Position numbers and translations under genes: made by a program. From positions 38,015-102,014 of the forward strand of contig JACPEK010000006.1 in assembly GCA_016183535.1 (NCBI GenBank): a stretch of 64,000 bases of DNA, written 5' to 3'. How positions within the stretch are numbered: the stretch's first letter is position 1; each line of letters opens with the position of its first letter. The notes under the pieces were generated by a model. That model worked only from the letters and a program-made list of their open reading frames with translations, was not told the origin of the DNA and did not search any database. Shown here in pieces: positions 1-4,262 of the stretch. This DNA is from Candidatus Brennerbacteria bacterium. GTDB taxonomy: Bacteria; Patescibacteriota; Minisyncoccia; UBA6257; GWB1-50-10.

Positions 1-870
1 CACCATGCGTCGCAACATCCTCCGTTTCGTCGCAGTGCGGAGTACGCGGTGGTCAGGGAAGTGAACCCAACCGAGGAAGTCCACGCCGGAAGCGAGGGTA
101 CAAATGGAAACTTTGTCGGGATGGAGGTCGAGTTTCAGCCGCTCCTTAAGAAAGGTGGTAAGTTCGGGAAGAATGTGCGCAAGCCGCGCACGGCCCTGCG
201 AAAGCACCGTAAAATCATCGGCGTAGCGGAGGTAATGTTTCACTTTGAGTTTGTGTTTTACGAATTGGTCAAATTCGTTCATGTATACGTTCACGAGAAG
301 CTGGGAGGTGAGGTTGCCGAGTGGCAGGCCTTTCCCCTCTGCGCCAGAGGAGAAACTTTCGATTATGCGCTTGAGAAACCACATAACGTTCTCGTCTTTA
401 ATACCTCTCTCAAGAATCTCGATGAGAATGGTGTGGTTAATACTCGCGAAGAATTTTCTCACGTCGCACTTGAGAACCCAACAGGTGCGGGTGTTGTTGC
501 TACTGACTTTGTATGCAAACGAGCGGAACCTATTTATAGCTCGGTGGGTTCCCTTCCCCACGCGGCATGAGAAAGAATCGGCGATGAACCTCCGGTCAAA
601 ATAAGGGTAGAGGACGCGGTAGGCGGCGTGGTGGAGGAGGCGGTCGCGGACGGTCGCTTTGTGGATGTTCCGCGGTTTGGGGTCAGTAATGTTGAAGGCG
701 CGGTAAGGCCCATGGCGATACCTGCCGCTCACGAGGTCGCGGTGGAGCGCGAAGATATTATCCATGAGTCGTAGACCGAACTCTTGCACGTCCGGCTTTC
801 CCCGTTTCCCGCGCAAAAATCCGCGCCACGCTTCGAGTAAGTTTTCGACGCTCGTGATATCCTCAAACAT
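1..870 (-). CDS. reverse transcriptase, DGR/retron-type; C-terminus runs off the window start (3'-partial)
   Basis: Minus-strand translation from ATG 870..868 gives MFEDITSVENLLEAWRGFLRGKRGKPDVQEFGLRLMDNIFALHRDLVSGRYRHGPYRAFNITDPKPRNIHKATVRDRLLHHAAYRVLYPYF... It continues through KCDVRKFFASINHTILIEIL, GLPLGNLTSQLLVNVYMNEFD, the catalytic LRYADDFTV (YADD codons at 214-228) and HPDKVSI..ASGVDFLGW, with no stop down to position 1. It is absent from the ORF track because it is open-ended. The plus-strand ORFs 49..570 and 245..604 are its antisense. Confidence 0.85.
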   Translation of the reverse strand, partial: MFEDITSVENLLEAWRGFLRGKRGKPDVQEFGLRLMDNIFALHRDLVSGRYRHGPYRAFNITDPKPRNIHKATVRDRLLHHAAYRVLYPYFDRRFIADSFSCRVGKGTHRAINRFRSFAYKVSSNNTRTCWVLKCDVRKFFASINHTILIEILERGIKDENVMWFLKRIIESFSSGAEGKGLPLGNLTSQLLVNVYMNEFDQFVKHKLKVKHYLRYADDFTVLSQGRARLAHILPELTTFLKERLKLDLHPDKVSICTLASGVDFLGWVHFPDHRVLRTATKRRMLRRMV

Positions 871-1254
871 ATGCAACCTATAACCCCCCCCCCCCGACGC
901 AATCAGCTGCCGGTAATCCAGAAACTGGTGGCGGCGTATAAACTGTGGCACGCGTTAGTACAAAATTTTCGCAGGACATCACGTTACACGCTCGGAGCAA
1001 AAATCGATTCCTTGCTTCTTGAGGTGATTGAAAACACCGTCGCCGCAAGTTACCTGCCTATCCATGAAAAATCATCCGTACTCGCGAAGTCAATCTCAAA
1101 ACTAGACTTCGTAAAGTTCTTTCTCGAGGTGGCGTGGGAAATAAAAGAATTGGACTCTAAGAAATACATCGCCGTTTCCGAAAAGCTTGATGAAGCGGGC
1201 CGCATGCTCGGCGGATGGAAAAAGGGCCTCGAAAAGAAAACTCTCGCTCAATAG
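871..1254 (+). CDS. avd: Avd-like accessory variability determinant (four-helix-bundle protein, TIGR02436-like)
   Basis: 127 aa. Resembles Bordetella-phage bAvd in pattern (e.g. ...KLDEAGRMLGGWKKG vs ...IAEVGRILGSWIARV). The start ATG directly abuts the divergent RT start (CATATG at 868-873). Contains a C12 homopolymer at 884-895 encoding TPPPR. Confidence 0.7.
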   Translation: MQPITPPPRRNQLPVIQKLVAAYKLWHALVQNFRRTSRYTLGAKIDSLLLEVIENTVAASYLPIHEKSSVLAKSISKLDFVKFFLEVAWEIKELDSKKYIAVSEKLDEAGRMLGGWKKGLEKKTLAQ

Positions 1255-1271
1255 GAGCGAGAGAAACAGTG

Positions 1272-1701: not shown

Positions 1702-2226
1702 TCAAGCCAGTTGCGGGACCACGAGACGAAGCCAGCCCCCAGCGAACCACACGCTGCCGTCCTCAAGCCGGCGCACGCGCAACCTGAGCGCGCCGCCCGA
1801 GCGCACGAACACGTCAGCAACGAAGAATTTCCCCTTCGATCGGAAGAGAAAAAACGTTCCGTAGCCGTCCGTGCGAAGCCAGCCGCGGTGCTTTCTGACA
1901 AAGTTCTTGATCTGGGACTGTGTGAGGCAGAGCTTGTTCAAATCGTTTGAAAGCGACCCGAACATTTGCGCGAACGTGGCATTCTGAACCATTTCGTAGA
2001 CGCTCGCGGGCGTCTCTCCCGTCGCAGAACCCGCCTCGTCGGCACCGTAGTTCACGAAATCGGAATCGATGTAGGTGAAAATGTCTGTTGCCTTCGCGAG
2101 CGTTTCCGATCCGTCAACGGCATCGAGAACGATCGAGGTACCGGCCGAAATCAGCTTCAGGAATGCGTGCTTCGCGCCGTTTGCAGCTGCCACCATGAGC
2201 TGGATCTCGTTCAATTTGCGTGCCAT
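1702..2226 (-). CDS. hypothetical protein, candidate DGR target (C-terminal ~38 aa encoded by repeat copy B)
   Basis: ORF 1702..2259 trimmed to M12 (MARKLNEIQLMVAAANG...), which is preceded by GGAGGTG 6 nt upstream. Codon usage is coherent. The C-terminus ...FVADVFVRSGGALRLRVRRLEDGSVWFAGGWLRLVVPQLA is encoded by the repeat. Confidence 0.55.
   Translation of the reverse strand: MARKLNEIQLMVAAANGAKHAFLKLISAGTSIVLDAVDGSETLAKATDIFTYIDSDFVNYGADEAGSATGETPASVYEMVQNATFAQMFGSLSNDLNKLCLTQSQIKNFVRKHRGWLRTDGYGTFFLFRSKGKFFVADVFVRSGGALRLRVRRLEDGSVWFAGGWLRLVVPQLA
1709..1826. repeat. DGR repeat copy B (118 bp), VR candidate; forms the 3' end of the minus-strand gene 1702..2226
   Basis: See copy A. The repeat ends about 5 nt before the stop codon of the 174-aa gene and is followed (on the minus strand) by a 13-bp hairpin. 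Confidence 0.7.
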
Positions 2227-2428
2227 GAGGCACCTCCATATATTTTGGCCACCCACCACTCCCTCGTTTGTTCGGGAGTATCGGGCTAGCCATTGTTAAT
2301 TTTGCTTTTCCATTATAGCACGCATCAATATAAAAGTCAAATTCCTGTCATGGTTCAATACCTTGTAATCACCTAGGGTATGAAGATGGCATATTCAACC
2401 AATCTTCCCTTTCCCCTTCCTCTGGCAC

Positions 2429-3005: not shown

Positions 3006-4262
3006 CTACTTTCCTATCTCCTTCTTCCCAAGATATGCTTGGAGCACTTTCGGGATCTTTACGGTGCCGTCCTTGGTTTGATTATTCTCAATGATCGCGA
3101 TTAAGGTGCGGCCGATCGCGAACGCGGTGCCGTTCAGCATGTGAGCGTACGCTTTCTCGCCGCTTTTTCTCTTCACTTTTACGTTCACCCCACGCGCCTG
3201 AAAATCGGTGGTGTTCGAGCACGACTGCGTCTCGCGATACGTTCCCTCGCTCGGAAACCACGTTTCGATGTCGAATTGACGCGCGTCGGTCCATCCCATG
3301 TCGCCTACGCAGATTTCGACAACGCGATACGGGAGTTCCAATTTCTGCATGAGTTCCTCCTGTCGATCGAGGAGGAAGCGGTGTTCTTTTTCCGACTCGG
3401 CGGGGTTGGCGAACGAAAACATCTCCACCTTGTCGAATTGGTGAACCCGCAAAATTCCTTTCGTATCTTTGCCGTAGCTCCCCGCCTCCCGCCGGAAGCA
3501 GGTAGAAAATCCGACGTATCGCCGCGGAAGCGATTGCTCGTCAAGCATCTCATCCATATGCAAGGGCCCCAAGGTGTGTTCCGCGCTCCCCACGAGGTAG
3601 AGATCATCCTTCGGAAGATAATACCGCTCTTCTTTCTGATCCGACGCGAGACGTCCCATGCCCATGAATACCTCGGGGCGTATCATTACCGGCGGCACCA
3701 CCGGCACAAAGCCGCGCGCGGTCAGAACCTCCATCGCGAGACGGACGAGCGCAAATTCGAGGAGCGCGCCGTCCCCCATGAGATACCCAAAGCGGCTTCC
3801 CGCGACCGTGGCGGCCCGCTTCACCTCGATCATCCCGAGCGGCTGGGCGATCGCAAGGTAGTCCTTCGGTTTGAAATCAAACCGCGGCTTTTCTCCGACT
3901 TCGCGAAGCGTCTTATTCCCCGACGCATCGAAACCGTCCAGCACGTCCGAAAACGGCGGATTCGGAAACTGTTCAAGAAGCACGGCCCGTTTTTTTTCGA
4001 CGTCCGCGAGCGACGCCGCCACCTCCGCGATGCGGTTCTTTAATATTTGCGCCTGCGAGAGAAGTTCCTCGCTTCTCGTCTCCGCGAGCGATTTCGACGC
4101 GGTCCTCTGTTCAGCCTGCAAAACATCAAGCGCCGCCCGTTTCGTGCGCCAGTTTTGGTCTACCCGCAGAAACTTTTCGACGAACTTCGGATCCACCCTC
4201 TTTCGTGCGAGGGCTCGCTTCGCGTCTTCCGGATTATCACGCAACCACTGAATATCAATCAT
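3006..4262 (-). CDS. serS: seryl-tRNA synthetase
   Basis: N-terminal coiled-coil plus the class II core; TCFRREAGSYGKDTKGILRVHQFDKVE motif. Confidence 0.95.
   Translation of the reverse strand: MIDIQWLRDNPEDAKRALARKRVDPKFVEKFLRVDQNWRTKRAALDVLQAEQRTASKSLAETRSEELLSQAQILKNRIAEVAASLADVEKKRAVLLEQFPNPPFSDVLDGFDASGNKTLREVGEKPRFDFKPKDYLAIAQPLGMIEVKRAATVAGSRFGYLMGDGALLEFALVRLAMEVLTARGFVPVVPPVMIRPEVFMGMGRLASDQKEERYYLPKDDLYLVGSAEHTLGPLHMDEMLDEQSLPRRYVGFSTCFRREAGSYGKDTKGILRVHQFDKVEMFSFANPAESEKEHRFLLDRQEELMQKLELPYRVVEICVGDMGWTDARQFDIETWFPSEGTYRETQSCSNTTDFQARGVNVKVKRKSGEKAYAHMLNGTAFAIGRTLIAIIENNQTKDGTVKIPKVLQAYLGKKEIGK

Follow-up and report, generated by a model that had tools for sequence, protein, structure and literature searches.

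A conserved poly-C tract in avd as a candidate switch of DGR mutagenesis in CPR bacteria

A poly-C tract, conserved in its presence and variable in its length, lies near the 5' end of the avd gene in CPR-type DGRs, and the balance of the sequence evidence leans slightly to the view that this tract is hypermutable and gates Avd and hence DGR mutagenesis. It was recognised in a Candidatus Brennerbacteria genome, where the window (the whole stretch of DNA analysed, 64 kb in length) carries inside avd, at 884–895 on the plus strand, twelve C residues that direct sequence reading confirmed to be uninterrupted. The tract belongs to a cassette at the beginning of the window with the following features.

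1–870, minus strand: DGR reverse transcriptase (RT), N-terminal 290 codons, RVT_1, continuing beyond the window edge
871–1254, plus strand: avd, 127 aa, matched by PF22296 and NF033474 and modelled as a four-helix bundle
884–895, plus strand: C12 homopolymer, the slippery tract, in avd codons 5–9
914–916, plus strand: TAA that ends the ATG-871 frame after 14 codons at C11, by sequence reading of the assemblies L001 and L002
928–930, plus strand: GTG, codon 20, the gene-caller start of a 108-aa Avd in the C11 assemblies
1241–1263, minus strand: terminator-like hairpin with a T-run, right after the template repeat and overlapping the avd stop codon
1272–1389, minus strand: template repeat (TR), 18 nt past the avd stop, sense on the minus strand
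1702–2226, minus strand: DGR target gene, 174 aa, with ATG at 2226 and the Shine-Dalgarno sequence GGAGGTG
1709–1826, minus strand: variable repeat (VR), at the 3' end of the target gene
2312–2340, minus strand: strong sigma-70-like promoter TTGACT-17-TATAAT upstream of the target gene, with 11/12 matches and a TG extension

The tract and the DGR cassette of the window

The open reading frame at 871–1254 (plus strand), the translation of which begins MQPITPPPRRNQLPVIQKL, is a genuine Avd according to both its profile matches and its predicted fold. It matches Pfam PF22296 (bAvd) over residues 17–119 with 51 bits, above the gathering cut-off of 40, and NCBIfam NF033474 (DivGenRetAVD) from residue 13 with E = 7e-19 and 68 bits, which is below the curated cut-off of 80, while the AlphaFold model is a four-helix bundle with pLDDT 90 in which helix 1 comprises residues 14–30. 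The protein is a 100% match to the NCBI “four helix bundle protein” of a Candidatus Brennerbacteria MAG. Residues 1–13 are modelled as low-confidence coil and lie outside the family profile, which places the tract in the coding sequence of a disordered N-terminal tail.

The C12 run covers positions 2-3 of codon 5 (ACC), the three CCC codons 6–8, and position 1 of codon 9 (CGA), the five codons together reading TPPPR, and on the RT/TR strand it appears as G12. It is the sole homopolymer longer than 8 nt in the 64 kb, the next longest C run being 7, and only about 0.03 C/G runs of at least 12 nt are expected in the window under an independent-base model, which argues against a chance origin. The original prediction, which placed such a tract inside avd and the avd start next to that of RT, is borne out on both points, as the RT ATG (870–868, minus strand) directly adjoins the avd ATG (871–873, plus strand) and the two genes diverge from a shared CAT/ATG (868–873). 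Its further statement that a change of one C would frameshift Avd also holds: avd is in frame from ATG 871 only with C12 or 12 plus or minus 3, and at C11 the frame closes at TAA 914–916 after 14 codons. A start at GTG 928 would cost Avd 6 residues of helix 1, as judged from the AlphaFold helix boundaries.

The RT gene, which is 318 aa long in L001, matches RVT_1 at E = 2e-25. DGR reverse transcriptases carry an [I/L/V]GxxxSQ motif, and the RT translation contains this motif within GLPLGNLTSQ. Since avd and RT stand head to head, the upstream region of each gene lies inside the other, and a promoter scan identified no promoter for avd or RT. In many relatives, among them L010 and L013 (at about 3950–3990), the avd and RT reading frames overlap antisense by 21 nt (ATGnnnCAATTGnnnnnnCAT).

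The TR and VR form a 118-nt repeat pair, and in the window they differ at 3 positions, of which 2 are TR adenines. The avd-adjacent copy is identified as the TR, with its sense on the minus strand, because in relatives that share the layout TR adenines, which are T on the plus strand, account for 17/19, 20/24, 22/23, and 19/22 mismatches. The opposite assignment, with the copy at 1709 as a TR on the plus strand, where 2/2 core mismatches are at A, was ruled out by the same relatives. No Pfam or NCBIfam match was obtained for the target gene. The hairpin at 1241–1263 could stop the TR transcript before its antisense passage through avd. The whole cassette has the order target-VR ... TR-(avd)-RT, where the VR ends the target reading frame and avd is inverted between TR and RT, which corresponds to architecture B3. 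This TR-(avd)-RT architecture makes up 90% of the CPR DGR set (Wu et al. 2018, PMC5758913).

The TR of this genome is poor in adenine, with 9 A (8%) and 1 AAC compared with 22–27% A and 7–10 AAC in the TRs of relatives, and it encodes VR-like residues where those of relatives encode Asn. Judging by its sequence, it looks as if it had been overwritten by VR-type sequence (gene conversion or self-homing) or had itself been mutagenised, which would leave a nearly frozen DGR. With 9 adenines and 3 VR mismatches there is little left to diversify even when Avd is ON, and the gating of Avd may have little phenotypic effect in this particular genome.

Tract length and reading frame among relatives

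The locus set comprised Avd relatives at 44–63% identity from GTDB genomes and JGI metagenomes, that is, 151 loci made up of 150 relatives and the window. A pure C run of 8–14 nt is present at the homologous site in 125 of the 151, with counts of 10, 43, 45, 15, 8, 2, and 2 for C8 to C14, respectively. The tract-bearing loci have a median GC content of 44% (minimum 32%), and elsewhere in 813 kb of loci just 5 other G/C runs of at least 8 nt and just 10 A/T runs of at least 9 nt occur. A G12 followed by G7 at the extreme contig end of L110 (3311–3330) is typical of a poly-G read-end artefact of two-colour sequencing chemistry and not of a biological tract. In the rest of RT and avd CCC makes up just 22% of proline codons, so that the selection or maintenance of the homopolymer must act on its nucleotides. 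Relatives without the tract have no PPP motif in the Avd tail, which makes the prolines look like a dispensable by-product of the tract.

On the avd strand the run consists of C in every case. In most loci 32–34 nt separate its end from Avd codon 20 downstream, while its distance to the RT ATG is 13 nt in the window, 10–31 nt in most relatives, and 51, 53, and 131 nt in outliers; this spacing, fixed to Avd and variable to RT, assigns the tract to avd and not to RT. Among 77 distant avd loci from viral contigs (24–40% identity, mostly with same-strand avd-TR-RT) no C run longer than 5 was found. A conserved TAA before the tract was considered and rejected, since the base profile gives a weak A/T preference only, and no conserved alternative in-frame start was found between the tract and helix 1, where the Leu codon varies among CTG, CTA, TTA, and TTG.

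For the analysis of reading frame a locus was designated as ON when an ATG within 80 nt upstream, open to the tract, was in frame with the Avd body. This was the case in 36 of the 125 loci with a tract of at least 8 (29%; 95% CI 21–38%), while in 87 the ATG was out of frame and in 2 there was no ATG; in the 18 loci with a run of at most 6 and an upstream ATG, 17 were in frame and 1 was out (Fisher p = 1e-7 for the in-frame share). The share of 36/125 is indistinguishable from one third, and all three phases are populated, about 49 of the out-of-frame loci needing -1 and about 35 needing +1. Runs of C7 are mostly out of frame already (1 ON, 4 OFF), and 57% of the C8–C9 tracts are out of frame, which makes sequencing error insufficient as an explanation at such short lengths. 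The Avd body is uninterrupted, at 119–143 codons, in each of the 86 complete OFF loci; therefore the OFF state is not gene decay or pseudogenisation. The original prediction had proposed a comparison of homologous avd genes, in which conservation of the tract as fixed proline codons would speak against a switch; relatives do carry the tract, and they carry it at lengths of 8–14 in three phases with about 70% out of frame.

Length differences are also seen between closely related sequences. A homologue search returned a 99%-identical Avd annotated at only 108 aa in two Logan assemblies (SRR12113420 and SRR12113422), the contigs of which, L001 and L002, both have C11 and are identical to the window over 1327 nt and 1389 nt, respectively, save for C12/C11 and one base inside the TR. 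That base, at window position 1345, is C in the window and A in L002, and the VR copy also has A there; it may reflect a TR polymorphism, or else the assembly graph crossed from one repeat copy to the other. The base was rejected as evidence of TR/VR variation, as the contig ends at the repeat and the two copies are identical for more than 30 nt around 1345, a stretch that a k = 31 graph can cross. The window RT protein was found only in these two contigs in the identical-RT search, the tract flanks of the window strain had no match at any tract length in JGI metagenome contigs, and the exact 127-aa Avd was absent from the contig index searched. At 11-12 nt a homopolymer is in the range where Illumina reads and de Bruijn assemblers are least to be trusted, and the C11/C12 difference could have been made by the assembler. 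To this extent the original prediction's suggestion of a sequencing or assembly hotspot may apply, but it cannot explain the family-wide pattern.

The tract lengths are 13, 14, 9, and 9 within one clade and 11, 9, 10, and 9 within another. The loci L009 (C9) and L014 (C10) have identical flanks and 1138 nt of identical RT, with the caveat that several identical-flank pairs may be one dataset. Both are MAG contigs with the isolate label “H43,” and after the identical RT they show 37 differences in 300 nt of avd, a pattern that suggests recombination or chimeric assembly at the RT/avd boundary. The loci L146 and L150, from two metagenomes, have 13 differences over 2332 nt: tract C9 versus C8, 11 VR positions (11/11 at TR adenines), and 1 SNP. 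According to this pattern the VR and the tract are two fast-evolving sites, and the DGR family is active. In addition, L146 contains at about 730–830 a MITE-like insertion of about 100 nt with 11-nt terminal inverted repeats (ACCCTGTTAGA ... TCTAACAGGGT), located between the avd/RT start region and the tract, which is absent from L150 and adds a new in-frame ATG.

Groups of loci with identical RT were uniform in their tract state. Group P0146 has C9 and is ON in all 9 assemblies, P0154 has C9 and is OFF at all 4 places (15 contigs), and P0203 is without the tract; the members of a group match one another at 100%, also in the VR, and are hence silent on DGR activity. The uniform C9 in two clonal aquifer groups indicates that switching of the C9 consensus is not rapid and that one lineage is apparently stably OFF. 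The heterogeneity of tract length to which the original prediction pointed is seen between the C12 and C11 assemblies of the same strain, but not within the two C9 clonal groups; the same-strain comparison and that of homologous avd genes both favour a contingency-type tract.

A different homopolymer was noticed in L076, where a G11 (3397–3407, minus strand) lies in the RT gene just before KGLPIGNxTSQ and the RT frame breaks, so that +1 G is needed. The avd gene of this locus has no poly-C tract. The contig coverage is about 1.3x, so the G11 may be an error, although as a single case it may also represent an independent homopolymer gate on RT.

Proposed mechanism and alternative explanations

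In the favoured reading C12 would be this genome's copy of a conserved hypermutable tract in the disordered Avd tail of the CPR-type DGR family, where slipped-strand mispairing would add or remove C residues and thereby shift the Avd body into or out of the frame of the ATG. In the window genome C12 would be the ON state (127 aa) and C11 the OFF state (a 14-codon peptide). Mutagenic retrohoming in Bordetella phage requires Avd-RT association (PMC5758913), and because Avd is an obligatory RT partner in that model, the tract would gate hypermutation. Adenine-directed hypermutation of the target gene would then be gated stochastically, with most lineages OFF and keeping their current variant and with revertants resuming diversification. 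On this scheme replication slippage would alter the tract length in living cells, an OFF locus would yield no functional Avd, and this CPR-type DGR would need Avd. The broader proposition, that most CPR/Patescibacteria DGRs are phase-variable via a selected avd poly-C and that their populations are mosaics of “diversifying” and “frozen” cells, is judged to be evenly poised between true and false.

It may be supposed instead that expression does not depend on the frame, since slippage of RNA polymerase or of the ribosome on poly-C/PPP would give some full-length Avd at any DNA length; the tract would then set a low Avd dose and not an ON/OFF state, and its DNA length would drift neutrally. A CCC-C site favours +1 frameshifting and ribosomes stall at PPP, and the about equal population of the three phases would fit such an explanation, but in known programmed shifts the frame relationship is fixed across orthologues, whereas here 0, -1, and +1 all occur (phases of about 36/49/35). 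Also, no stimulatory RNA structure was found by the tract in four loci that were folded (z of +0.8 to +1.7, tract unpaired). The best documented sites of transcriptional slippage are A/U runs, and such runs could evolve much more readily in these AT-rich genomes, while G/C runs are the classic DNA-level contingency tracts. The intact Avd body in every OFF locus and the OFF C9 allele that is stable across 15 contigs and several samples agree with neutral drift of length; however, differences in DNA length are seen directly between near-identical genomes. Taking these points together, frame-independent expression is considered unlikely.

The tract might also act on the other strand, where the G run would serve RT as a promoter spacer, a 5'-UTR or ribosome-binding element, or a part of the DGR RNA, the avd prolines and frameshifts being by-products. 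Its short distance from the RT ATG (13 nt here, 10–31 nt in most relatives), the head-to-head position of avd and RT, and the constant orientation of the run can be read in this way, but the spacing is fixed to Avd helix 1 (32–34 nt) and varies up to 131 nt to the RT ATG, L146 tolerates an insertion of about 100 nt between the tract and the RT start, and tract-less relatives keep the same RT arrangement. Moreover, no promoter-like hexamer pair spans 884–895 in the promoter scan, folding gave no RNA structure on either strand, and the contrast in ATG frame between runs of at most 6 (17/18) and tract-bearing loci (29%) is left unexplained, which makes a role for RT highly improbable. Hardly more credible is a pure artefact, in which C11/C12 would be a sequencing or assembly error and the true state a fixed in-frame polyproline tail: short reads are prone to error in homopolymers of 11-12 nt, the three assemblies may come from overlapping data, and C9 alleles are uniform across assemblies, but both Logan assemblies agree on C11, the family-wide pattern with 57% of reliably sequenced C8–C9 tracts out of frame is not accounted for, and homopolymer purity is maintained though CCC is 22% of proline codons elsewhere.

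Significance and comparison with known systems

CPR bacteria are the richest DGR reservoir; to our knowledge, no CPR DGR has been studied functionally. Unrestrained DGR activity would destroy adapted variants, and the avd tract offers a concrete, testable regulatory mechanism for DGRs. If this is true, a mutable switch placed on a mutator would represent a second-order evolvability device and a general answer to the question of DGR restraint, and the range of homopolymer contingency loci would come to include ultra-small bacteria that are uncultured and non-pathogenic. On the practical side, the out-of-frame ATG causes annotation to truncate or overlook about 70% of these avd genes, and the tract phase could be used as a state marker in metagenomic reads, which may be correlated with VR diversity in time series. 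In the literature searched, including Wu et al. 2018, no poly-C tract or avd phase variation is described, although an earlier mention in relation to CPR DGRs is possible. The homopolymer contingency locus and the DGR are each known, and their combination, conserved across CPR DGRs, appears to be new.

Homopolymeric contingency loci include the poly-G/C tracts of Campylobacter jejuni, Neisseria, Haemophilus, and Helicobacter and the poly-C frameshift of bvgS in Bordetella pertussis. Like these loci, avd has a G/C run of 8–14 nt near the 5' end of the reading frame, where a change of one nt toggles the frame. The parallel extends to a tract that is conserved at varying length, to the occurrence of both ON and OFF alleles in closely related sequences, and to the scarcity of homopolymers in the rest of the genome. 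The avd tract differs from them in that the gated gene is a hypermutation accessory factor and not a surface antigen or restriction-modification gene, and in that the hosts are uncultured CPR/Patescibacteria and not host-adapted pathogens.

The promoter-spacer homopolymer switches of Bordetella fim and Neisseria porA/opc are a less suitable parallel, as no hexamer pair spans 884–895 and the distance to the RT ATG varies over 10–131 nt. Programmed slippage or frameshifting at homopolymers is known from IS element transposases, dnaX, and poly(A) rescue in endosymbionts, and these systems share with avd a homopolymer between the start codon and an intact, out-of-frame main reading frame; unlike them, avd has no conserved frame relationship and no stimulatory structure was found, and its run is of C instead of A/T. 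In phasevarions, which are based on phase-variable DNA methyltransferases, a simple-repeat switch likewise stands upstream of a system generating phenotypic heterogeneity, but the downstream effect there is epigenetic regulation of many genes, whereas the avd tract would permit retroelement-driven recoding of one target gene.

As regards the DGR itself, the closest comparison is that of Bordetella phage BPP-1 (mtd-avd-TR-brt), with which the present cassette shares an LGxxxSQ-type RT, an Avd that forms a four-helix bundle, and a TR/VR pair, the differences of which are specific to adenines in relatives. In contrast to BPP-1, avd is inverted between TR and RT (B3) and the start codons are head to head, and the poly-C tract is absent from distant phage-type avd genes.
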